The notes: a model not told the origin generated them from the letters alone. DNA of 64,000 nt from an uncultured Candidatus Saccharibacteria bacterium (GCA_964429815.1 CAYSCM010000001.1:256001-320000); one strand, 5' to 3'. Counted from the stretch's first letter, positions 1-44,956 are shown. Made by a program: numbers and translations.

Positions 1-20
1 TCCGTATCATCGATATCGTT

Positions 21-55
21 TGAAAAGAAAAGCGCCCGACCAAAGAGTCGGGCGC
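21..55 (-). terminator. rho-independent terminator (GCGCCCGAC/GTCGGGCGC stem followed by T-run on minus strand)
   Basis: 9-bp GC stem at 32-40/47-55; minus-strand continuation is ttttcttttca. Confidence 0.6.
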
Positions 56-72
56 GAACAACAGAGGATGCA

Positions 73-531
73 CTAGGTTCGAATGGCGCGGACGTTATCT
101 TTTTTTCTTTGCTCACGCATTGCGCGTTGTATATCGACAGCAATACTCCGGACTTCGTGGGCGGCCGGCACGATGCCGATGATGAGCAGAACAACCAACG
201 GATCGGCCCAATTCCATGGAACGAAGCCAAACTTAGTTATGGGCCCGGCTAAACAGCCGAATATGTGGGCGGAAAGAATCAGTATGAAAGCGGAGAACCA
301 CTCGAGGGATTCATCTTCCATCATTTTGTTTATCATCCAGAAGGCATAGAGAATGAGATCGGCAAGGAACAGAAGACCCACCCATATAATGATCAGCCCG
401 GAGATGCCCCCTCTGTCTTTAGCCCCCCTCGCCGCGTCCTTCACGAAAGCCGTATTCACGGAGTCGCCAAGCCATACGGCAAAGTAGGCTATGACGAGGC
501 TGAGAGCAATAGTTAGGATTCGGTTGGACAT
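73..531 (-). CDS. hypothetical integral membrane protein
   Basis: ORF with several hydrophobic segments; internal ATG at 531 preceded by GGAGAGG RBS; longer ORF to 597 lacks RBS. Confidence 0.55.
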   Translation of the reverse strand: MSNRILTIALSLVIAYFAVWLGDSVNTAFVKDAARGAKDRGGISGLIIIWVGLLFLADLILYAFWMINKMMEDESLEWFSAFILILSAHIFGCLAGPITKFGFVPWNWADPLVVLLIIGIVPAAHEVRSIAVDIQRAMREQRKKDNVRAIRT

Positions 532-627
532 TTTCCTCTCCGCAGTTGGGAATGAACAGCTTCGTAAGTATTTAACAAAGATTTTTGTTTCTGTCAAGTT
601 TCAATACTTGCTGATATACTTTTTTGA

Positions 628-1050
628 ATGAAATTCACCATCTATACCGACGGGGGAGCGAGGGGAAATCCCGGACCTGCGGGACTCGGTGCGGTCATTG
701 TCGACGAGAAGGGGAAGGTTTTGAAAGAAATTTCTAAATTTCTCGGCCATCAGACGAATAATTTTGCCGAATACGAGGCGATTATTGCGGCGCTCACCGA
801 ACTTAAAAAAATTGTTCCCGAAGGAAAGCGAAAAGATACGCAGGTTGAGATGAAAATGGACAGCGAACTTGCTGTGCGGCAGCTCTCGGGGAAATACCAA
901 ATTAAAACAGAGAGTCTGTTTCCAAAATTTATAGCCATTCACAATATGCGGGTGAAAGATTTCCCGAATATCACCTTCACCCATGTGCGCCGAGAGCAAA
1001 ATAAGGAAGCGGACAGACTTGCGAACGAAGCGATGGACCGTGGTGCGTAA
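628..1050 (+). CDS. rnhA: ribonuclease H
   Basis: MKFTIYTDGGARGNPGPAGLGAVI... and C-terminal RREQNKEADRLAN are the classic RNase H fold motifs. Confidence 0.85.
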   Translation: MKFTIYTDGGARGNPGPAGLGAVIVDEKGKVLKEISKFLGHQTNNFAEYEAIIAALTELKKIVPEGKRKDTQVEMKMDSELAVRQLSGKYQIKTESLFPKFIAIHNMRVKDFPNITFTHVRREQNKEADRLANEAMDRGA

Positions 1051-1052
1051 GT

Positions 1053-2558
1053 ATGCGAGACAAAATTTTTCTCTGGCTCATTCTCGGGTTTGCGGGCGGG
1101 ATCCTGCTTCGTTCGTTTTTTGATTTCGGACTTTTTCTTCCGATCATTTTTTCGGTCGTCGCTTTTTCCGTCATTCTCTCCCGTGCGTTTTGGGATACAT
1201 CCACCGCCGCGGCACTCCTCGTCGCGGCGGCTCTCTTCGGCTGCTCCCTGGGCATGCTCCGCTATGAAAAAGCGGATCTTCCCAAAAATCCCCTCATTGA
1301 GTCGTTTCAGGAAAAAAATGTGGCAGCAGAGGGTGTAGTGGTAGGCGAGCCAGATGAGCGAGAAAACTCAACATTGCTCTACGTCCGGCTCGACAAGATC
1401 GAAGACCAAAGCGTCAACGAAAAAATTCTTGCGGTTGTGGAGCTGTATCCAAAAATATCCTACGGTGATGAAATTACGTTGTCTGGAAAGATTCAATACC
1501 CACAGAACTTTGAAACTGACACGGGAAGAGTATTCGATTACCGCGCATATCTTGCGAAAGAGGGAATTACGTACGAAATGACATTCCCGAAACTTTCAAT
1601 AGAAGGGCACGAGAAAGGAAATCCCGTTCTCGAAGCTCTATTTACACTTAAAGAAAAATTTTTACACAATGTCGAGCAGGTTATACCGGAGCCAGATGCA
1701 TCACTGCTCGGGGGTCTCGTCGTCGGCGCAAAACACTCGCTCGGAAAAGAGCTCCTCGATGATTTTCGCACCGTCGGCGTCGTGCATATCGTTGTGCTTT
1801 CCGGCTACAACGTCACCATTGTTGCTGACTTCATTCAAAAAGTATTCTCCTTTTTGCCCCGCTATGTCGGCATCGGGCTCGGCTCGCTTTCCATCGTCTT
1901 TTTCGCGCTCATGACCGGGGCGACCGCGACGACCGTGCGTGCGAGCATCATGGCACTCCTGGCGATTGTCGCCCGCGCGACAGGGCGCACCTACGTCATC
2001 ACCCGAGCTCTCGTGTTGGCGGGTTTTTTCATGCTTCTCCAAAATCCCCACATCCTCGTCTTCGATACCTCGTTTCAACTCTCGTTCCTCTCAACCCTTG
2101 CGCTCATCTATGTCTCCCCGCTCGTTGAGGCAAGACTTCTTTGGATTCCGGAGAAGTTTGGACTGCGCGAGATTGTGACCGCAACCATTTCGACACAAAT
2201 TTTCGTGTTACCGTTTCTCCTCTATACCACCGGCATCTTCTCTGTCGTTTCATTACCCGCCAACCTCCTCATTTTGCCTTTGGTGCCGGTGACCATGCTC
2301 TTCGGATTTCTCGCGGGTACCCTCGGTTTCGTGAATCTCATCGTGGCGGCACCGTTTTCTTGGGCCGCCACCGCGCTCCTCTCGTTCATGCTCTTTGTCG
2401 TCAAAGAATTAGCGTCGGCACCGTTTGCCGCTGTCGTACTGCCAGCGTTTCCGTTTCTCCTCGTCATGTTCTGGTACGGTCTATATGCGTATGGGTATGT
2501 AAAAATGAGAAAGCCCGCCGCAGCGGAAGCTGCGGCGGGCGCTGCTGCAAGAAGTTAA
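1053..2558 (+). CDS. comEC: ComEC/Rec2 family protein, membrane channel domain only (no MBL domain)
   Basis: polytopic membrane protein with DUF4131-like N-terminus and Competence domain; MBL domain encoded separately at 4268..5125. Confidence 0.7.
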   Translation: MRDKIFLWLILGFAGGILLRSFFDFGLFLPIIFSVVAFSVILSRAFWDTSTAAALLVAAALFGCSLGMLRYEKADLPKNPLIESFQEKNVAAEGVVVGEPDERENSTLLYVRLDKIEDQSVNEKILAVVELYPKISYGDEITLSGKIQYPQNFETDTGRVFDYRAYLAKEGITYEMTFPKLSIEGHEKGNPVLEALFTLKEKFLHNVEQVIPEPDASLLGGLVVGAKHSLGKELLDDFRTVGVVHIVVLSGYNVTIVADFIQKVFSFLPRYVGIGLGSLSIVFFALMTGATATTVRASIMALLAIVARATGRTYVITRALVLAGFFMLLQNPHILVFDTSFQLSFLSTLALIYVSPLVEARLLWIPEKFGLREIVTATISTQIFVLPFLLYTTGIFSVVSLPANLLILPLVPVTMLFGFLAGTLGFVNLIVAAPFSWAATALLSFMLFVVKELASAPFAAVVLPAFPFLLVMFWYGLYAYGYVKMRKPAAAEAAAGAAARS

Positions 2559-3145
2559 GACGCCGCGGAGAAGCGTTTCTCCGCGACACTCCAGTTGAGG
2601 TTGCTCCAGAATGCGTCGATGTAGTTTTTCTTTTCCGCCGGCGCGTAGTCGACCATAAAGGCGTGTTCCCACATATCGAGCGCGAGAATGATCGGAAGCC
2701 CGGCAAGCTGTCCGAGCTCATGATCACCTACCCAATAGATATGGGGTGTTTTTCCTTTACCATCCCACGCAAGCACGGTCCAGCCGATGCCGCGCATGAG
2801 CCCGATATTTTTGAAGTGCGATTCAAACTCGGCGAGGGAGCCGTATTTCTCGACAAGAACCTCACCGAGCGCTCCAGATTCCAAAAGGCCAGCGGGGCCA
2901 CTCTCCCACTGCTCGAAGTAGTACTCGTGCATGCGCATGCCGTTGAACTCGAAACCAAAGCGGCGCATCACCTCGCCGAGGGCGTACGCGTTCTTTTCGC
3001 TGTCGCTTCGAAGATCAGCAAGGACCTCCCGCAGATGGTTGGTGAATTTCACATAGCCAGCGTAGAGCTTGAGGTGCACGTCGAGCTGCTTCTGCGATAT
3101 TCCTCTGAGCTCGGGCAAGGAGAATTTCTGCTCTGCGTAGATCAT
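2555..3145 (-). CDS. sodA: Fe/Mn superoxide dismutase
   Basis: LPELRGISQKQLDVHLKLYAGYV..., DMWEHAF motif. Confidence 0.9.
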   Translation of the reverse strand: MIYAEQKFSLPELRGISQKQLDVHLKLYAGYVKFTNHLREVLADLRSDSEKNAYALGEVMRRFGFEFNGMRMHEYYFEQWESGPAGLLESGALGEVLVEKYGSLAEFESHFKNIGLMRGIGWTVLAWDGKGKTPHIYWVGDHELGQLAGLPIILALDMWEHAFMVDYAPAEKKNYIDAFWSNLNWSVAEKRFSAAS

Positions 3146-3261
3146 GGTGCCGCTTAGTATAGCATCGGCACAATGATTTTCCGGTGTGTCTACCTTGTGG
3201 CCATGTATCGGCGTGGTTCAATACAGGGAGCACCTCAGTTCTCTACAGAAAGGGCAAGAGC

Positions 3262-4209
3262 ATGAAACGACTCTTCCTCATCGTATTATTCTGCGTTTTC
3301 TCGGTGCCGACGTACGGCCAAGTGCAGCTCCTTCGTTCTGACCCTCATAAAGCGGTATGGGCCACATACGCCTACATTCTTCAGAACTCCCTGCGTCGTA
3401 TCGATGTAGCGACCTGTGGGGAGCCCATCCGACGCGCCATCGGAAAAGTTCTCGCGTCCAAAGATGACCCCTTCACCCTCGTCGAGCAGAACTTTATTTT
3501 GCAGACTCGCGGATGCTTTGATCATTACTCGCAGTTCGTCCTGTTCCGAAGGACTCCCAATCCGCCCCAAGAAAATACCTCCGGAGGAACAACGAAGCTC
3601 GCGTACCGGACGGTCATCGGTGCTCCGCTGACCGAGACGACGCAGTACGTACTTATCGAGCGTTTTGGCTCCATGACAGCGCGCGACTTTGCTCGGGAGC
3701 TGTCTTCCACCAGGGGAATGCGCAACCTCGTCCTTGACCTTCGGGACAATCCGGGCGGAAGCCTCGATGGCGCGCTTAGCATCGCGCACCTCTTTGCGCG
3801 CTCCGAGAAGCTTGTCCTCGCGGAGTACGTATTCAAGAACGGGGACGTCAAGACGCTCGTGACGACCTCCGCGGGAATATTCCGTCACGTTCGCATCATC
3901 ATGCTGGTCAACCGCAATACGGCCTCCGCGGGGGAGGCTCTTGCAGGGGCGATCCGGTGCAGCGCCGGGGATGCCCGCATTCTCGGGGAGAGGACGTACG
4001 GCAAGGGCGTGTTCCAAAACGCCCTCGTTCTCGATGAGGGCATTGGCCTCTATCTCACGGCCGGAGAGTACTTCGTCGCCGGGGACCGTGTTCGCGGCAA
4101 GATCCAGGGCATCGGGCTCCTGCCGGATGTACTTCTCCCGAATACGCGACCGACGGAGGTCGACCGCGATGTCGCTGTGAAAATGGCGCTTACGCTCCTC
4201 GAAAAGTAG
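3262..4209 (+). CDS. S41 family C-terminal processing peptidase with signal peptide
   Basis: MKRLFLIVLFCVFSVPTYG signal; NLVLDLRDNPGGSL and TASAGE S41 motifs; start chosen at signal peptide Met. Confidence 0.75.
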   Translation: MKRLFLIVLFCVFSVPTYGQVQLLRSDPHKAVWATYAYILQNSLRRIDVATCGEPIRRAIGKVLASKDDPFTLVEQNFILQTRGCFDHYSQFVLFRRTPNPPQENTSGGTTKLAYRTVIGAPLTETTQYVLIERFGSMTARDFARELSSTRGMRNLVLDLRDNPGGSLDGALSIAHLFARSEKLVLAEYVFKNGDVKTLVTTSAGIFRHVRIIMLVNRNTASAGEALAGAIRCSAGDARILGERTYGKGVFQNALVLDEGIGLYLTAGEYFVAGDRVRGKIQGIGLLPDVLLPNTRPTEVDRDVAVKMALTLLEK

Positions 4210-4212
4210 CGG

Positions 4213-4250
4213 ACGGGCGCGACCCTTGGTCGCGCCCTCTTTCTTTTTTA
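4213..4250 (+). terminator. rho-independent terminator
   Basis: GGGCGCGAC-cctt-GGTCGCGCCC hairpin followed by tctttctttttt. Confidence 0.65.
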
Positions 4251-4267
4251 TATATAGTAGTGCCGCT

Positions 4268-5125
4268 ATGCAGAGACTCCGTCAGCGCGTCCTACTCTCC
4301 ATCGTTCTCGTGCTCGCCGCCGCCGCAGCGCTTTCGCTCTATGCGCTCGTGCGCGAGAGCGCACATCTCCTCACCGTGGCCTTCCTCGATGTCGGACAGG
4401 GCGATGCCATCTATATAGAATCGCCAACAGGCACTCAAATCGTCGTCGATGGCGGCCCAAACAGCGCGCTCCTGCGTGAGCTTGGCAGAGTTATGCCGCT
4501 CTACGACCGCTCCCTCGACGCAATCGTGGTGACGAATCCCGATGCGGATCACTTCTCCGGTTTTATTGACCTGTTATCCCGTTACAAGGTTGGCATCGAG
4601 CTCGAGCCGGGAACGGAAAAACACACGGTAACCTATCAGACGCTCGAGAATACGCTTAGAGAAAAAGGCGTGAAGCAGATCATTGCGCGACGGGGGATGG
4701 TCTTTAATCTCGGCGGCGGTGCACACCTGGATGTTCTCTACCCCGACAAAGATGTCTCGACGTACACACCAAACGATGGCTCCATTGTCATGCGCCTTGT
4801 CTATGGAAGCACAAATATCCTCCTCATGGGCGACGCGACGGCAAAAGTGGAGAGTCGTCTCCTCGCCATCGCCTCATCGACCTCATACAAGACCGATATT
4901 TTAAAACTCGGCCACCACGGTTCCAAGACGAGCTCCTCGCAGGCATGGCTCGCAGCAGCCTCTCCCGCCTACGCTATAATCTCCGCCGGGCTCAAGAATC
5001 GCTATGGGCTACCGAGCCCGGTCGTCACAGAGCGCCTCGCGAGCGACAGCATCCCGACGCTTGAGACGTTTCGCGATGGCACCCTTATTTTTGAGTCAGA
5101 CGGGAAAAACTTTGTACGAAAGTAA
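4268..5125 (+). CDS. ComEC-type metallo-beta-lactamase domain protein (second half of split ComEC)
   Basis: N-terminal TM then FLDVGQGDAIYIE, HHGS MBL motifs typical of ComEC C-terminal domain. Confidence 0.7.
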   Translation: MQRLRQRVLLSIVLVLAAAAALSLYALVRESAHLLTVAFLDVGQGDAIYIESPTGTQIVVDGGPNSALLRELGRVMPLYDRSLDAIVVTNPDADHFSGFIDLLSRYKVGIELEPGTEKHTVTYQTLENTLREKGVKQIIARRGMVFNLGGGAHLDVLYPDKDVSTYTPNDGSIVMRLVYGSTNILLMGDATAKVESRLLAIASSTSYKTDILKLGHHGSKTSSSQAWLAAASPAYAIISAGLKNRYGLPSPVVTERLASDSIPTLETFRDGTLIFESDGKNFVRK

Positions 5126-23590: not shown

Positions 23591-24592
23591 TTGAGGTCGC
23601 AACTCGCTCATACGTATGACGATATCATCTCGCTAGAAAATCTCCTTGCCGCATGGCAGGAATTCGTGCGCGGGAAGCGCAAAAAATGCGACGTGCAAGA
23701 GTTTCAGTTTCGGCTCGTGGACAATATTCTTGAGCTCTACCGTGACTTGAAAGAGAAAACATACACGCATGGGCCGTACCACCCTTTTAAAATAAGCGAC
23801 CCTAAACCCCGCGACATCCACAAGGCGAGCGTACGCGACCGGCTCCTCCACCACGCAATATATCGGAAACTCTATCCATTCTTCGACAAAATTTTCATTG
23901 CCGATTCGTACTCATGCAGGAAAGGCAAAGGAACACACAAGGCGATGAACCGTTTTCGTTCCTTTGCATACAAGGCGAGCTTAAATCACACAAAAACGCT
24001 TTGGGTGCTCAAGTGCGACATCAAAAAGTTCTTTGCATCAGTCGATCAGCATGTTCTCCTGGAGATTATTAGGCGCTGCATTTCTGACACCGACATCCTC
24101 TGGCTCATCGAGCGAGTCGTGCAGAGTTTCAATCCCAGCAGGGAGGGCACGGGTCTCCCGCTCGGCAATCTCACCTCGCAGCTTTTAGTGAATGTGTATA
24201 TGAACGAGTTTGACCAGTTTGTGAAGCGCACCCTCAAAGCGAAATACTACATCCGTTACGCCGATGATTTTGTGATTTTCTCGCAAGATGCGAAATGGCT
24301 CCAACAAATATGCAAATATATCAGCATATTCTTACGTGAACGGCTGAAACTCGAATTGCACCCTAATAAAGTATCGATCACAACGCTCGCATCCGGTATC
24401 GATTTTCTCGGCTGGGTGAATTTTCCTGATCATCGCGTGCTACGCACCTCGACAAAGCGGCGGATGTTGAAGCGAATGACTGGTGAGCAATCTAAAGAGA
24501 TCATCAAACCGTATTTAGGGCTTCTTCAACATGGGAACAGCAAAAAGCTGCAATTGAAAATCTTGTTTGACACAGCAGAGGCAATCAAGTAA
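23591..24592 (+). CDS. DGR-type reverse transcriptase
   Basis: 333 aa; [20 protein letters not shown] (DGR [ILV]GxxxSQ in place of group II QGxxxSP), [14 protein letters not shown] box. Confidence 0.9.
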
Positions 24593-37003: not shown

Positions 37004-37099
37004 AGGAACCGGCCTACTCTAGCATTTGCGAGCCGTTTTCGCAATTGGAACTCCGGGTCGATTTTTCTAGTATTGATACTAGATGAATTGGAGTTACCC

Positions 37100-37498
37100 A
37101 TGATCTTCACGTGCCTCGACCACGTCTCGGTCCTCTGTAGAGACTACGAAGTATCGAAGAAGTTTTACATCACGATCCTCGGCTTCAGGCTCATTCGTGA
37201 GGAATTCCGATGGGACCGTTTCTCCTGGAGGGGAGAATTGTCGCTTCGTGGACGCTACCTCGTCGAGCTCACCTCTCTCCCCAACGCTCCGGCACGCCTG
37301 ACTAATCCCGAAGCAACGGGCGGTAGGCACCTGGCGTTTGCATGCGGAGATTTCGACAGTGCCCTCGCACATTTGCGGGAGCGTTGTTCGGTTGAGAGCG
37401 TGCGTTTTGACGCCTTGCGAAAGCGGAGGTTCACGTTCTTTTTTGATCCGGACGGATTGCCCACCGAACTTGTCGAAGCGAAAAGGCCTCACGTATAG
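37100..37498 (+). CDS. VOC/glyoxalase family protein
   Basis: GGAG RBS; glyoxalase-like beta-alpha-beta-beta-beta pattern (MIFTCLDHVSVLCRDYEVSKKFYITILGF). Confidence 0.6.
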   Translation: MIFTCLDHVSVLCRDYEVSKKFYITILGFRLIREEFRWDRFSWRGELSLRGRYLVELTSLPNAPARLTNPEATGGRHLAFACGDFDSALAHLRERCSVESVRFDALRKRRFTFFFDPDGLPTELVEAKRPHV

Positions 37499-37508
37499 GG
37501 GCCTTTTT

Positions 37509-37865
37509 TCAGTCTTCAGGCGGGTACATCTCGTGTTTGATCGCCCGGAGCTTCGCGATCACGTCGGGATCAGTGATGCGCATGAAACGCTCGACCTCAT
37601 CACCGTCCTTTTTGGCCGCCTCGTAGAACATGTGAAGCGGTCGGTTATCGAACATCTTGCCGAGTTTGTATACCGTAGCCTCTTTGTACAAAGGTCTGTA
37701 ATTAAGCATGAACTGATCGATTGGCCGGCAGTCTTCTTCAGTATGGTGGCCGACGCCGTAGATGTAATAGGCGTAATTGTTAATCGCCCCCGCAGGATCG
37801 TGTTTGTAGTGGTAATAGTAGCCGGGCTCCGGCACTTTTTCTGGTGGTTGCGGATTGTTGCTCAT
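37509..37865 (-). CDS. DUF1653 family protein
   Basis: YYHYKHD...Y.YGVGHHTEE...YRPLY...MF pattern of DUF1653. Confidence 0.55.
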   Translation of the reverse strand: MSNNPQPPEKVPEPGYYYHYKHDPAGAINNYAYYIYGVGHHTEEDCRPIDQFMLNYRPLYKEATVYKLGKMFDNRPLHMFYEAAKKDGDEVERFMRITDPDVIAKLRAIKHEMYPPED

Positions 37866-37946
37866 GTGAAATTTCCTGTTGCCCCTCCAACCTTACTTCA
37901 GAATTTTAAAATACAAAACTCGCCATCGAACGTGTTTTGTGTTCGG

Positions 37947-37965
37947 GTAGAGAGGGGTGGAATCA
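37947..37965. repeat. degenerate copy of tmRNA 3' end (att-like)
   Basis: GTAGAGAGGGGTGGAATCA vs GTAGAGATGGGCGGAATCG (16/18). Confidence 0.35.
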
Positions 37966-38027
37966 TAGGGATATTCCTAACCACCTTAACGTGATATATT
38001 TCGATAAAGTTTTATCCTCCTGACTGA

Positions 38028-38564
38028 ATGCAAAAAAATATATACATAATCACTGGCGGACCTGGGTCTGGAAAAACGAGTATGATCGAGGAATTGAAGA
38101 AGCAGGGATTTAATGGCTCTGAAGAATTATCAAGGCAATTTATTAAGGAGCAGATACAGACGAAAGGGAGGTTACTTCCCTGGGTCGATAGATTGGGATA
38201 CAGCGAAGAGATGCTCAAAAGAAGAGTGAATCAGCATGAAAAAACCTCTTCCAGTGATTTATGGTTTTTTGATAGAGGAATTCCGGACTTAATTGCCTAT
38301 ATAAGAAAAGATAAGCTTAGCGTGCCCGAGATCTTCTATGTCTCAGCAAAAGAGTACAGGTACAATCACATTGTATTTTTAACACCTCCCTGGAAAGACA
38401 TATACGAAAACGATTCTGAACGAAGAGAAACTTTTGAGGAGGCAAAAAAAATTCACGCCGAGATTGTGAGCACCTACCTAAACCTAGGATATGAAACCCA
38501 TACTGTACCAAAGGGCACCATTGACGAGAGGGTCAGTTGGGTTTTGAATCTCGTCGGCGGCTGA
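38028..38564 (+). CDS. P-loop NTPase (AAA_28-like ATPase), in AT-rich segment
   Basis: IYIITGGPGSGKTS Walker A; locally much lower GC than surroundings. Confidence 0.7.
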   Translation: MQKNIYIITGGPGSGKTSMIEELKKQGFNGSEELSRQFIKEQIQTKGRLLPWVDRLGYSEEMLKRRVNQHEKTSSSDLWFFDRGIPDLIAYIRKDKLSVPEIFYVSAKEYRYNHIVFLTPPWKDIYENDSERRETFEEAKKIHAEIVSTYLNLGYETHTVPKGTIDERVSWVLNLVGG

Positions 38565-38633
38565 AGTTATCAAACTGAAAAATCCTCCAATACCCCAGGG
38601 CTTTTCGAGGTCTTTGTCAGTGAAACTCCTAGA

Positions 38634-38660
38634 TGTAGAGATGGGCGGAATCGACATACC
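38634..38660. repeat. partial duplicate of tmRNA 3' end (att-like)
   Basis: GAGATGGGCGGAATCGA identical to ssrA 3'-terminal 17 nt, ~155 bp downstream of ssrA. Confidence 0.5.
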
Positions 38661-38780
38661 AAGTCACTAATTCGCTTCGCTCATAAGTGCTTGCCGGCCC
38701 TCCTCGCCGTCGCGAAGCGACATGGCTCCGGCCGTTCGATTCCGACGAATGTGCCACATTCTCCAACAAAGGCAAAAGAA

Positions 38781-38812
38781 AAAACCGGCACAAAGCCGGT
38801 TTTTCTTTTGCT
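38781..38812. terminator. terminator after ssrA
   Basis: AAACCGGC-acaaa-GCCGGTTT with flanking A/T runs. Confidence 0.7.
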
Positions 38813-38813
38813 G

Positions 38814-39183
38814 TGGAGATGGGCGGAATCGAACCGCCGTGCAAAATAGGGTAAACGCGTTTCTACACTATCTAGTCTGCTCTCAATTCTCGAAGTTATG
38901 CGTTAAGAGCAAACAAAATCGCATACCTTCCAGTCTCGTAGTTTAGACGCGCTCGTGAGACACCAAATGCGTCGAGTCCGGAAATATTACACCCAAGAGT
39001 GCCTAACAGACTTCAACAAGCTGGATGGGATTAGGCCGTCGCGTAAGCGAAGGAGAAATCCTTTGCCGAAAAATACGGCGAAGTAACTGATTTTGCAGTT
39101 ATTTTTTCAGGATTTTAAGGAAGGTCCTGACTTCCACAGTGCACGTTAGTTTACGGATTATTTTGTCTAGGCCGATCATCCCC
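38814..39183 (-). ncRNA. ssrA: tmRNA (transfer-messenger RNA)
   Basis: 5' GGGGATG / 3' CATCTCC-A acceptor with G3-U70 wobble, T-arm GGCGGTTCGATTCCGCC, internal tag ORF GCA AAG GAT TTC TCC TTC GCT TAC GCG ACG GCC TAA (AKDFSFAYATA*); adjacent smpB. Confidence 0.75.
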
Positions 39184-39259
39184 GAGGAGGGCACGAGCGT
39201 GTTTCAGCGATTCACGTGTTTTGTTGAGGAGGCAAGTTTAACGCTTGCCTCTATTTTCT

Positions 39260-39385
39260 TTAGGTGGAACGTTTCCCTTTCACTGCAAGGTACAAGACCA
39301 TGATGAGACCTACTGCTAGCAGTACTCCCCACCCGAAAACGATGTTCTCGCTCACCCATATGAGATGAGCATTGAGATCGCACAT
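39260..39385 (-). CDS. possible 41-aa membrane peptide
   Basis: GGAGGTA RBS 4 nt upstream of ATG; single TM helix; speculative. Confidence 0.25.
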   Translation of the reverse strand: MCDLNAHLIWVSENIVFGWGVLLAVGLIMVLYLAVKGKRST

Positions 39386-39441
39386 GACTACCTCCAAGTT
39401 TCCTCAACAAAACACGCAACTCACGCCCTCTTTGGGAAGGC

Positions 39442-39891
39442 CTAGTATTCTTTTTTCAACGAACGCCCTATGTCTCTCTGCGCCTCGCGCTTCTTCATAT
39501 CTTGACGTTTGTCATGGAGTTTCTTACCACGCACGACCGCGATGGAGACCTTTATCTTGCGAGCCTTACCATACATCGAAATAGGCACTATTGTCAAGCC
39601 CTTTTTGCTCTCAAACCCCAGAAGCCGGGAGATTTCCGTGCGGGTAAGGAGAAGTTTTCGTGTGCGTTCCTGATCGTAGTTCTCGGGGGTGTTCTTCGGC
39701 TGGTAGGGCGGGAGCTGCATGCCAACGAGGTATGCTTCATTGCCGCGCACGACGATGCGCGCACCTTCCAGTTTTCCGCGCCCTTCGCGCAAGCTCTTTA
39801 CCTCAAGACCCAGCAATTCGATACCCGCCTCTAAGGTTTCGAGTATCTCGTAGGTCAGGCGCACTTTTTTGTTTTCGACCAAGGCGGCCAT
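39442..39891 (-). CDS. smpB: SsrA-binding protein SmpB
   Basis: KLEGARIVVRGNEAYLVGMQLPPY...GKARKIKVSIAVVRGKK SmpB. Confidence 0.9.
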   Translation of the reverse strand: MAALVENKKVRLTYEILETLEAGIELLGLEVKSLREGRGKLEGARIVVRGNEAYLVGMQLPPYQPKNTPENYDQERTRKLLLTRTEISRLLGFESKKGLTIVPISMYGKARKIKVSIAVVRGKKLHDKRQDMKKREAQRDIGRSLKKEY

Positions 39892-42732: not shown

Positions 42733-42805
42733 GGGCGTGTAGCTCAACGGTTAGAGCACCAAGCTTATACCTTGGTGGTTCCTGGTTCGAATCCAGGCAC
42801 GCCCA
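42733..42805 (+). tRNA. tRNA-Ile with anticodon TAT (UAU)
   Basis: cloverleaf: acceptor GGGCGTG/CACGCCC, D-arm GCTC..GAGC, anticodon stem CCAAG/CTTGG loop CTTATAC, T-arm CCTGG TTCGAAT CCAGG; no encoded CCA. Confidence 0.8.
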
Positions 42806-44956
42806 CTATTCGAAGTGAAGGTTGGCAGACGCTTCGGCGGCTTTTGTAGCGACGTGTGGGTACTTAGCGAGGGTAGGATCCTCCTCAACAAGCGCCTCGG
42901 CCTCCGTGCGGGCCGCCTCTACCATTTTGAGATTGCTCATCGCTTCCATCGCGATATCCGAGATGCCCCACTGACGCCCTCCGCCGAGCTCGCCCGCACC
43001 ACGCAGCTTGAGATCAAATTCGGCGAGTTCAAAGCCATTTTTTGCTGTTTTGATGGCGCGTAAACGATCCGTGGTCTGCTTTCCCTTAGAATCCGCAAAC
43101 ACGTAGCAATATGCTTGATGTGTGGAGCGAAGCACGCGGCCACGAAGCTGGTGGAGTTGGGCCAGTCCAAAACGTTCCGCCCCCTCGATGACAATTACCG
43201 TCGCATTCGGAACATTCACGCCCACCTCGACAACCGACGTTGCAACCAATATCTGGATTTTATTCGCAGCGAATTGCTCCATAACGGAGTCCTTGTCCGA
43301 CGCACTCATTTTGCTGTGGAGTATGCCAACATCGAATTCCGGAAATACTTCATCAGCGAGGCGTTTCGCCTCTTTTTTCACCGATTTAGCGAGAAGAGCG
43401 AGCTCCTTGGTGGGATCGGGCTCGTCAATGCGCGGGCAAATGACGTAGGCTTGGCGGCCCGCTTTGAGCTCGGAGCGGATTTTTTCGTAGACACTTTCGC
43501 GCTCACTTGGTGCGACGATTTCTGTCACTATCGGCTTGCGTCCCGCGGGCATCTCGTCGAGGAGTGAGAGGTCGAGATCGCCGTAAATGGTAAGGGCAAG
43601 TGTGCGGGGGATGGGGGTCGCCGTCATAGAGAGAAGGTGAGGTGCAATGTCGTCCTTACGTACCAGTTTTTTCCGCTCCCTCGTGCCGAAGCGATGCTGC
43701 TCGTCGATGATGACGTAGGCAAGATTCTTAAATTTAACCGCCTTTTGAATGAGAGCGTGGGTGCCGATGAGGATGGGTATTTCGCCATTAGCGACCCACC
43801 TGAGAAGCTGTGCGCGGGAGATATCCGTAGCACCCTCGCGGTTAACTTTTGAGGGGAACTTTTTACAGCCCGAGCTCGTGAGGAGGCCGATGTTGATGGG
43901 AAGGTGCTTAAATAGCGCTATGAAAGATTCAAAGTGCTGCTTGGCGAGGATTTCGGTCGGTACCATGTAGGCGACCTGAAGATTGCCAAAATTCTGCCCC
44001 GCCGGTCGGGTCATCACGGTGGCGTACGCGGTCGCAGCGGCAACCGCGGTTTTCCCCGACCCCACATCGCCCTCGAGAAGGCGCGACATAGGGTGTCCCG
44101 ATTTCATATCAGACACAATGTTTTCAATAGATTTTTTTTGTGCACCGGTGAGGGGGAAAGAAAAGCGTGACGTAAATTCACTGATGTCGCGCTGCTCGAG
44201 TGCAATTTTGAACGATTGATGGTGTTCGTACTCACGACGCTCCTTAAACTTTCCGACCTGAATAAAAAATACTTCCTCAAAGGCGAAGCGCTTTTTTGCC
44301 GAAATTGAATCCCTAAGCGTTTTTGGGGTGTGGATCCACACCAGAGCGGCGGCTTTGGTGGGGAGGTGGTAGCGCTCGATGATCTCGGCGGGAATTGGGT
44401 CGACGATTTTCTCCAGAATGCCGCTTTTGAGGACACGGTCGATGGCATAGTAGAACCACTTCGAGGTGATGCCTCGGCTCTCGGGGTAGATGGGGTAGAG
44501 GCTCGAGGCGCTCATATCGGAAAACATGGGCCCCGTGCCGGCCTCGTTTATGTGAGCGGCTTCGATTTCGGGATTACCAAAGTACACACCCGATTTTCCC
44601 GAGCCGACTTTGCCGGCAATTTTTACAAAACTCCCGTCGGGATGCATTTTCGCGATGTAGGGCTGGTTGAACCAAATGAGTTTGACCTTGCCGCTCCCGT
44701 CCTCGAGGTAGCCCTCCGCAATGGGGACCTTGGAGCGGAAGGCGCGGCGTGTTTTGGGCCCTTTGAGAACGCCGTAGAGCGTTGCGGCCTCACCCGGGGC
44801 GAGCGTCGCCACCGTCTTCGTCCTCCCTAAATTTTCGTAGCGGGTCGGGTAGTGGGAGAGGAGGTCGTCGATCGTTGCGATGCTGAGTTTCCTGTGGGCC
44901 CGTTTTTGGACTTCTGAAATACGAAAATGTTTCTCGACGGCGTCGGTGAGTTCCAT
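42806..44956 (-). CDS. recG: ATP-dependent DNA helicase RecG
   Basis: wedge domain plus DEQHRFG and helicase motifs. Confidence 0.9.
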   Translation of the reverse strand: MELTDAVEKHFRISEVQKRAHRKLSIATIDDLLSHYPTRYENLGRTKTVATLAPGEAATLYGVLKGPKTRRAFRSKVPIAEGYLEDGSGKVKLIWFNQPYIAKMHPDGSFVKIAGKVGSGKSGVYFGNPEIEAAHINEAGTGPMFSDMSASSLYPIYPESRGITSKWFYYAIDRVLKSGILEKIVDPIPAEIIERYHLPTKAAALVWIHTPKTLRDSISAKKRFAFEEVFFIQVGKFKERREYEHHQSFKIALEQRDISEFTSRFSFPLTGAQKKSIENIVSDMKSGHPMSRLLEGDVGSGKTAVAAATAYATVMTRPAGQNFGNLQVAYMVPTEILAKQHFESFIALFKHLPINIGLLTSSGCKKFPSKVNREGATDISRAQLLRWVANGEIPILIGTHALIQKAVKFKNLAYVIIDEQHRFGTRERKKLVRKDDIAPHLLSMTATPIPRTLALTIYGDLDLSLLDEMPAGRKPIVTEIVAPSERESVYEKIRSELKAGRQAYVICPRIDEPDPTKELALLAKSVKKEAKRLADEVFPEFDVGILHSKMSASDKDSVMEQFAANKIQILVATSVVEVGVNVPNATVIVIEGAERFGLAQLHQLRGRVLRSTHQAYCYVFADSKGKQTTDRLRAIKTAKNGFELAEFDLKLRGAGELGGGRQWGISDIAMEAMSNLKMVEAARTEAEALVEEDPTLAKYPHVATKAAEASANLHFE

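Follow-up and report, generated by a model that had tools for sequence, protein, structure and literature searches.

Probable serial insertion of integrase-less elements into the T loop of the tmRNA gene in a patescibacterial genome

Introduction

How does the tail of a transfer-messenger RNA (tmRNA) gene come to lie a second, and perhaps a third, time beyond an intact ssrA, with a foreign gene between the displaced copies and no integrase nearby? The question is raised by a 64,000-nt stretch of DNA from an uncultured Candidatus Saccharibacteria bacterium (GCA_964429815.1 CAYSCM010000001.1:256001-320000), here called the window. A first-pass annotation had read the region as the scar of a single tmRNA-integrated element, a decayed genomic islet. 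Our analysis points to a different history, which we consider probable: elements without an integrase of their own, mobilized in trans, inserted serially into the T loop of ssrA, and the older of them carried an ATPase gene.

Direct repeats derived from the 3´ part of a gene are the signature of site-specific insertion into tRNA and tmRNA genes (PMC4383910), and serial integration at one such gene pushes older elements and partial tRNA copies outward (PMC4383910; bioRxiv 10.1101/2020.12.28.424599). The Patescibacteria (Candidate Phyla Radiation, CPR), to which the host belongs, have tiny genomes, the present one included, with few recognized mobile elements, and the ways in which they gain genes are unclear. 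A hot spot at ssrA that gathers single-gene units would be a concrete mechanism of accessory-gene turnover.

Results

The ssrA gene occupies positions 38813-39183 on the minus strand (ARAGORN; Rfam RF00023, 93.3 bits against a gathering threshold of 47, E 4e-36) and encodes the tag peptide AKSVTSPYFSAKDFSFAYATA. The block under study, R1 or block A (38812-38832, minus strand), comprises the T loop, the 3´ strand of the T stem and the 3´ strand of the acceptor of this working gene. A 17-mer, GAGATGGGCGGAATCGA, occurs exactly twice in the 64 kb, at 38816-38832 within ssrA and at 38638-38654, which bears out the tmRNA-tail repeat first annotated beyond the gene. Extended, the second occurrence gives R2 (38634-38654, minus strand), a displaced direct copy that reads TCGATTCCGCCCATCTCTACA on the ssrA strand and agrees with R1 at 20 of 21 positions, 17 of them in the exact match. 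The identity runs from the TCGATT of the T loop to 2 nt beyond the discriminator. The two blocks are offset by 178 nt; R2 lies 157 bp past the ssrA 3´ end and ~125 bp past the terminator, not about 155 bp beyond the terminator as the first-pass annotation had it.

A third copy, R3 (37947-37964, minus strand; GTAGAGAGGGGTGGAATC), is degraded, matching R2 at 16 of 18 positions and ssrA at 15 of 18. It is the sole further match with at most three mismatches on both strands of the window (128 kb), where 0.04-0.06 would be expected, and it lies 688 nt from R2 on the same strand, so a chance match is unlikely. As a copy, R3 is much weaker than R2. Reading R3 as a full T arm (GGTGG...CCACC) with a 14-nt loop insert was rejected, the gapped score being equalled by 47 of 6394 windows. 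A fourth direct copy was sought between R3 and infC, where it would bound the DUF1653 and glyoxalase genes that lie there, and the best match reached only 11 of 18.

Exactly between R3 and R2 lies an open reading frame (ORF) at 38028-38564 on the plus strand, which encodes a P-loop protein of the AAA_28 family (Pfam PF13521; 135.9 bits against a cut-off of 27, E 2e-39) with the Walker A motif GGPGSGKT at residues 10-17. The gene is intact, its match spanning positions 2-164 of 164 and thus 163 of the 164 profile positions. Its GC content is 0.41, and the lowest-GC 537-bp window of the 64 kb begins at 37901, at 0.387 (mean 0.549, standard deviation 0.042). The segment is therefore as AT-rich as first described, and it is compositionally foreign.

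The comparison covered 77 related loci. Their common order is recG, tRNA-Ile, ftsH, smpB, ssrA, infC, rpmI, rplT, SLOG, beta-CASP, ndk, of which the part from recG to rplT is the ancestral order. The infC gene starts less than ~100 nt from the end of ssrA in many relatives; the corresponding gap in the window is 1.8 kb. By tblastn, the glyoxalase, DUF1653 and ATPase genes have no match at any of the 77 smpB loci, and the ATPase gene was not found beside ssrA, with native GC, in any of these distant relatives, the arrangement that would have spoken against insertion. The nearest relatives by SmpB are at most 63% identical and comprise Patescibacteria, Kaiserbacteria-like and Paceibacteria-like metagenome-assembled genomes (MAGs). 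Among relatives the ssrA-infC gap is variable and contains genes for SDR, DUF1761, TruD, threonine synthase and TPR proteins or, in locus L018, a GIY-YIG gene. In L009 (10832-12349) a 505-aa ORF for a large serine recombinase (Resolvase and Zn_ribbon_recom domains) overlaps the ssrA 3´ end by 11 nt and is another element type at the same target. All same-species contigs are 100% identical, and no insert-free strain was found among them. The sequence of the region is identical in independent assemblies, so it is no assembly artefact. In the lineage of L015 and L021, smpB and ssrA have, as a pair, the reverse orientation with respect to ftsH and infC.

By the kind of criteria used for Islander-type islands, the locus has an intact gene and same-orientation fragments on one replicon (R1 with R2 and R3), 3´ fragments that extend from the T loop to the gene end (with a like boundary in L015), and a segment that is both compositionally atypical and missing in relatives, which are distant. 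There is no integrase between gene and fragment.

The 157 bp between R1 and R2 (38655-38811, minus strand), called unit 1 here, are non-coding. They contain the intrinsic terminator that now serves ssrA (38779-38805, minus strand; terminator scan, fold z -4.1) and, downstream of it, block A´ (38729-38766, minus strand), an inverted copy of the tmRNA tail. By A´ we mean the inverted acceptor strand (TTGGAGA, 38760-38766), an extra hairpin (GAATGT/ACATTC, 38747-38761) and the inverted T-stem 3´ strand with T loop, taken together. The inverted T arm (38729-38744), which was absent from the first-pass list of repeats, is complementary to 38824-38839 at 15 of 16 positions, with an exact 11-mer at +70, and the predicted forked hairpin has a z of -8.9. 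Next come a conserved core 13-mer, GCCGGAGCCATGT (38720-38732, minus strand), and a conserved hairpin, CTTA-TGAGCGAAGCGAA-TTAG (38660-38693, minus strand; motif at 38667-38686), with a co-varying stem: pair types UA, AU, CG, GC and UG occur at one position, and the observed covariation was reached in 0 of 500 shuffles. The element matches the profile of the module family described below at E 3.6e-24 (nhmmer), being itself one of the seven training sequences of that profile.

Rfam recognized nothing other than the tmRNA, either in the region or for the hairpin-motif element. Plasmid BLAST returned no match for the module or the motif element, and a literature search for the hairpin-motif sequence found none. 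In IMG/VR the 20-nt motif occurs in five phage-like contigs of high GC (L186-L190), where it is intergenic and does not adjoin integrases. It lies there within palindromic mosaic elements whose stems co-vary, and the copy in L187, at the contig end, is separated by 8 nt from the tRNA-like 3´ end that precedes it. The motif, TTATGAGCGNAGCGAATTAG, contains GCGNAGC and by inspection could form a GNA-capped mini-hairpin between tandem G.A pairs.

Unit 1 is a member of a conserved family and not the random remains of a decayed island. Non-coding modules of 150-270 nt follow ssrA in five other Patescibacteria and tRNA-Ile in a sixth. With the seven-copy profile, nhmmer found nine copies in total, at seven sites in seven genomes (two genomes have two copies), and no others in ~2 Mb of fetched loci or the rest of the window. 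On the target strand the modules share one layout: the 3´ block A, the terminator, the inverted acceptor strand and the small extra hairpin, followed by the inverted T-stem 3´ strand and T loop, CGGAGCCATGT, a GGCAGGAGCC-like stretch, the CTTA-TGAGCGNAGCGAA-TTAG hairpin and the displaced direct copy. Folded with DNA parameters, this strand is predicted to form a forked hairpin at 7/7 sites (z -6.3 to -14.2; 0 of 200 shuffles folded as well). The outer stem pairs the T loop and T-stem strand with A´, and the arms are formed by the acceptor strand with the terminator and by the extra hairpin. As RNA, the seven modules gave only the terminal inverted repeat in RNAalifold, and single-sequence RNA folds of the module interior were unremarkable.

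The inverted block follows the target. Inverted copies of a genome's own T arm, at least 10 nt exact and 54-82 nt past ssrA, are present at 6 of 28 loci (the window, L011, L013, L015, L024 and L025). Six such matches fall in 8.1 kb of proximal downstream sequence, versus one in 82.7 kb of upstream control and one in 66.5 kb further downstream. The T-arm sequences differ among the six genomes, and the inverted copies co-vary with them. A Kaiserbacteria MAG (L015, SmpB 51% identical) has an 18-nt direct copy of the ssrA tail 180 bp after ssrA, and the DNA in between has its parts ordered as in the window, with the identical 13-mer GCCGGAGCCATGT. The L021 module follows tRNA-Ile(TAT) and is flanked by a 57-nt direct repeat (55/57) made up of the tRNA tail, from the T loop on, and the adjoining downstream flank; its inverted copy fits the T arm of tRNA-Ile and not that of the tmRNA. 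L025 has two modules of 190 nt, one at each end of a 1.85-kb segment that contains one TPR gene in convergent orientation to ssrA. This appears to be the arrangement of R2, the ATPase gene and R3 in better condition, the cargo being convergent with ssrA in both.

Two further observations concern individual modules. L013 has two adjacent modules (3630-3965), the second with a 51-nt perfect palindrome and a T arm, GGTTCAACTCCC, foreign to its own tmRNA. The sequences of L015 and L021 are the same through the ssrA terminator and GTGGAGAT, with which the inverted block begins, and differ from there on.

None of the modules contains or adjoins a recombinase gene. Nor was a recombinase or integrase found in the window ORFs scanned (at least 250 aa), the ATPase or alternative-frame ORFs of the region. 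The statement that no integrase remains is thus correct as far as it goes, none being found in any frame; because modules recur without an integrase in six other genomes, it is more likely that the element never had one than that one was lost. In IMG/VR there was no free or full-length element with the module, and a two-part core pattern matched coding sequence by chance only.

Weaker features accompany the displaced copies, all on the minus strand. R2 is followed by TCTAGGAGTTTCACTG, and a weak hairpin with a U-run (38578-38610; fold z -1.6, not significant) is suggestive of, and possibly was, a former ssrA terminator. R3 is followed by CCGAACACAAAACACG; a hairpin (ACAAAAC/GTTTTGT) with a T-run (37908-37940), the fold of which is by itself not significant, contains ACAAAACACG, present also upstream of ssrA, and is possibly the oldest ssrA terminator. 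An inverted partner of R3 (GGTGG..GGAAT / ATTCC.ACC; 37965-37986; fold z -0.9, not significant) is possibly a collapsed A´ of the older unit.

Homologues of the ATPase, 58-67% identical, have unrelated positions in CPR-like contigs, and one stands in an archaeal-type context. The homologue genes lie 4-18 GC points below their flanks in most contexts, the exceptions being the archaeal-type L174 and one flank of L180. In L082 the homologue is wedged between tRNA genes; L087 and L090 agree over ~75 nt before the homologue and ~50 nt after it, with different neighbor genes. No tRNA-derived direct repeats surround the homologue in L082 or L087. In L185 it is one unit of an array bounded by an unrelated 28-nt repeat. 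Judged by these contexts, the ATPase gene behaves as a mobile single-gene unit. A metagenome scan with the ATPase alignment returned distant homologues only (36-46%) and was of no help on contexts.

The L185 array (1-4384; ENA ERZ22857436 NODE_19272) has nine direct copies of TGCTGGCAGARTGGGACGATGTTAGAAC, 255-1011 nt apart, between small genes in both orientations. It includes the ATPase homologue, which is 63% identical, and a tRNA/tmRNA-like 3´ fragment at 3047-3072, and looks like a cassette array of a different kind. In L174-L178, a 58%-identical homologue (P0017) lies inside an archaeal-type operon (S19e, L31e, NFACT-R), which suggests transfer between CPR bacteria and archaea, possibly of DPANN type.

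An AlphaFold model of the ATPase (pLDDT 78) resembles dTMP, adenylate and deoxynucleoside kinases in Foldseek (TM 0.6-0.69, identity 11-18%), and PHROG families labelled thymidylate kinase match it at E 3e-13. The predicted fold is thus nucleotide-kinase-like, and fold similarity only would point to a kinase role. A sequence search of the PDB found no relative. A role in defence was rejected, the PADLOC match being at the P-loop level only.

Discussion

If integrase-less elements inserted serially at the T loop of ssrA, each insertion would bring a new gene tail and push the previous tail downstream. Unit 2 (R2 to R3, ~0.67 kb) would have come first, with the ATPase gene between a tail block and an inverted block that is now eroded; most of its module would since have been lost to erosion, with R3 left behind. 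Unit 1, ending at R2 and without cargo, would have come later, supplying the present tail and terminator and displacing R2. Neither unit encodes a recombinase, so the gene for the enzyme that moved them would lie elsewhere; a tyrosine recombinase that acts at the T loop is the most likely candidate. The order of events, the mobilization in trans and the kind of enzyme are what we infer here.

Several points weigh against this history. Neither an empty site nor a free circle nor a recombinase is on record for the module family, and it is therefore from architecture only that we infer mobility. The known copies of the module number only nine. R3 is short and degraded, and neither its inverted partner nor either of the hairpins that follow R2 and R3 reaches statistical significance. 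The relatives are distant (the best SmpB identity is 63%), so the absence of the segment from relatives is a comparison with distant genomes. Finally, the low GC that the ATPase family shows in most host contexts could partly reflect protein composition and not recent transfer.

A more conventional account would invoke one or more classical islands, integrase-encoding elements that entered ssrA by double-stranded attP x attB recombination, after which deletion of the integrase and most of the cargo left 157 bp and one gene. The direct repeats from the T loop to the gene end and the compositional break fit such an origin, tRNA and tmRNA genes are known to harbor tandem arrays and degraded remnants (PMC4383910; 10.1101/2020.12.28.424599), and the L009 relative has a recombinase-bearing element at ssrA. 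However, independent deletions would not yield one 150-270-nt architecture at seven sites in seven genomes, no integrase fragment is seen in any frame, and neither the conserved core nor the target-matched A´ would be explained. We think decayed islands unlikely. What stands of the original scar is its T loop-to-gene end repeats, foreign composition and absence from the 77 loci; in place of one islet there now seem to be two stacked units, and decay does not describe an intact cargo gene beside a 157-bp module that is conserved and not debris. A related doubt attaches to R3 alone. Were it a chance match, only the R1-R2 mini-element would be tied to ssrA, and the ATPase gene would have come independently, for instance through illegitimate recombination or a cassette mechanism of another kind. 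Of the 18 nt of R3, 2-3 are mismatched, and it lacks a significant partner structure; elsewhere, homologues of the ATPase gene move with their own ~75-nt and ~50-nt flanks, without tRNA repeats (L087 and L090), or sit in a cassette bounded by a different 28-nt repeat (L185). Yet R3 is unique in the 128 kb at up to three mismatches, lies on the right strand and exactly at the GC break, and has a parallel in L025, with its cargo gene between two module copies, and we regard coincidence as very unlikely.

The module might instead be a vertically inherited functional element of the ssrA locus, with only the ATPase gene foreign. It could prolong the terminator, act in processing, yield an antisense or decoy RNA, or bind a protein, with selection keeping R2 and the inverted copy matched. 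In keeping with such a role, the inverted T-arm copy is an exact 11-12-mer in L011 and L024 beside a degraded direct copy, the ssrA terminator continues into the forked hairpin, and one core hairpin shows compensatory changes. The distribution, however, is patchy (6/28 ssrA loci); the L021 copy stands at tRNA-Ile with its 57-nt flanking direct repeat, L025 has two copies around a cargo gene, and an L013 copy carries a foreign T arm. No Rfam family and no consensus RNA fold past the terminal repeat was found, and transcripts of ssrA would include little of the module, as the terminator precedes the inverted copy. We consider a function of this kind highly improbable and the least credible of the explanations weighed here.

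Returning to serial insertion at the T loop, the shape of the modules invites a more specific proposal, which we offer tentatively and which may well prove wrong: that they are undescribed integrase-less miniature integrative elements whose single-stranded DNA folds into a forked hairpin that mimics the T-arm/acceptor duplex and is used by a recombinase of the host or supplied in trans. In a circular single strand, the A/A´ hairpin would imitate the duplex target and undergo one strand exchange with the chromosomal T loop. A tyrosine recombinase, host-encoded or trans-acting, would perform the exchange, and replication would then fix the insertion. The layout of A, terminator, A´, core and displaced block would be the expected product of such a single-strand exchange. 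Mobility would predict a circle junction of ...TTAGTGACTTGGTATG + block + CAGCAAAAGAAAAACCGG. Retargeting from ssrA to tRNA-Ile would need a change of two matching blocks only, and the stacking of gene-less and single-gene cassettes, such as that of the ATPase, behind ssrA would follow.

Known systems share parts of this arrangement. Like Islander-type genomic islands at tRNA and tmRNA genes (PMC4383910), the locus combines an intact target with a displaced 3´ fragment, a restored gene, and a tandem array with older units outward. Unlike them, neither unit has an integrase, unit 1 is only 157 bp and gene-less, and there is an extra inverted target block, foreign to the classical attL/attR picture. 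Williams is said to have defined, in 2002 and 2003, T-loop sublocation classes of integration sites. What is new relative to the classical picture is the lack of a recombinase at any site, the very small size and the inverted target-matched block.

Closer in principle is CTXphi, in which inverted attP1 and attP2, ~90 nt apart, form a forked hairpin in single-stranded DNA that is the attachment site for host XerCD, and integration leaves one functional site and two non-functional site-like copies (PMC3089051). Like CTXphi and other integrative mobile elements exploiting Xer (IMEX), the modules lack a recombinase gene, one of the three target copies (R1) is functional and the other two (A´ and R2) are not, and a forked hairpin is predicted, by computation only, at 7/7 sites. 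Unlike these elements, the modules target the T loop of ssrA or tRNA-Ile in place of dif with XerC/XerD; there are no filamentous-phage or rolling-circle genes, the size is 0.16-2 kb versus 6-8 kb, and single-strand integration is our suggestion from the layout. Integron cassettes are promoter-poor, single-gene units at a fixed site, newest nearest, and gene-less cassettes exist; their attC site, which recombines with attI, is an imperfect inverted repeat that folds, one strand bearing an extra-helical feature, and it works similarly to CTXphi. The units at ssrA resemble them in being stacked at a fixed site and having a folded inverted-repeat recombination site, and differ in that the T loop GTTCGAT, by inspection, misfits the attC core (RYYYAAC/GTTRRRY), no integron integrase and no tyrosine recombinase is found in the window ORFs scanned, and the direct repeats measure 18-57 nt versus ~7 nt. 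Cis-mobilizable elements (CIMEs) are flanked by att sites, lack recombination genes and are presumed to be mobilized in trans, all of which applies here; unlike the present units, CIMEs are kilobases long and derive from integrative and conjugative elements with identifiable parents, and no parent element was found for these. The tycheposons of Prochlorococcus, finally, form islands by a few tRNA genes and the tmRNA gene through repeated integration, with partial tRNA copies and degraded elements (10.1101/2020.12.28.424599). The streamlined genome and the older elements pushed outward at tRNA or tmRNA genes are alike; tycheposons, in contrast, carry genes for a tyrosine recombinase and for replication, and are not known to have an inverted copy that mimics the target.

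If the forked-hairpin reading is true, the principle of CTXphi and integrons, in which a folded single strand mimics the target and makes use of a recombinase from the host, would also apply to targets in tRNA and tmRNA genes, and the system would be naturally retargetable. If it is wrong, there would still be a well-bounded case of serial integration at ssrA, little documented in this phylum.

Other features of the locus

On one side of ssrA, smpB (39442-39891, minus strand) adjoins the gene, followed by ftsH and tRNA-Ile(TAT). On the other side come, in order, the ATPase gene, a DUF1653 gene (37509-37865, minus strand) and a gene for a YaeR-like glyoxalase-fold protein of the VOC family (37073-37498, plus strand); infC, rpmI and rplT lie past the glyoxalase gene. 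The tRNA-Ile gene with anticodon TAT (42733-42806, plus strand) adjoins ftsH and has the same position in at least 12 related patescibacterial loci (L006-L011, L016, L021, L024, L033, L036, L077). Such a tRNA is an unusual route to reading AUA.

Between smpB and ssrA (39215-39416), a perfect 16-nt inverted repeat (39215-39230 / 39401-39416) encloses a hydrophobic 41-aa ORF, MCDLNAHLIWVSENIVFGWGVLLAVGLIMVLYLAVKGKRST (39260-39385, minus strand). The 10-mer ACAAAACACG occurs three times in the 64 kb (0.05 expected), once in each 16-nt arm and once at 37931-37940, 7 nt past R3.

Logan contigs from SRR12313479 and SRR12313480 start or stop inside the ssrA 3´ block (38816-38842), and a third sample is continuous there; the breaks could reflect strain heterogeneity or k-mers common to other species. 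Elsewhere in the window, within the EF-Tu/ribosomal-protein region, a 333-aa reverse transcriptase (23591-24592, plus strand; RVT_1 E 4e-26) could belong to a diversity-generating retroelement, a retron or a group II intron remnant.

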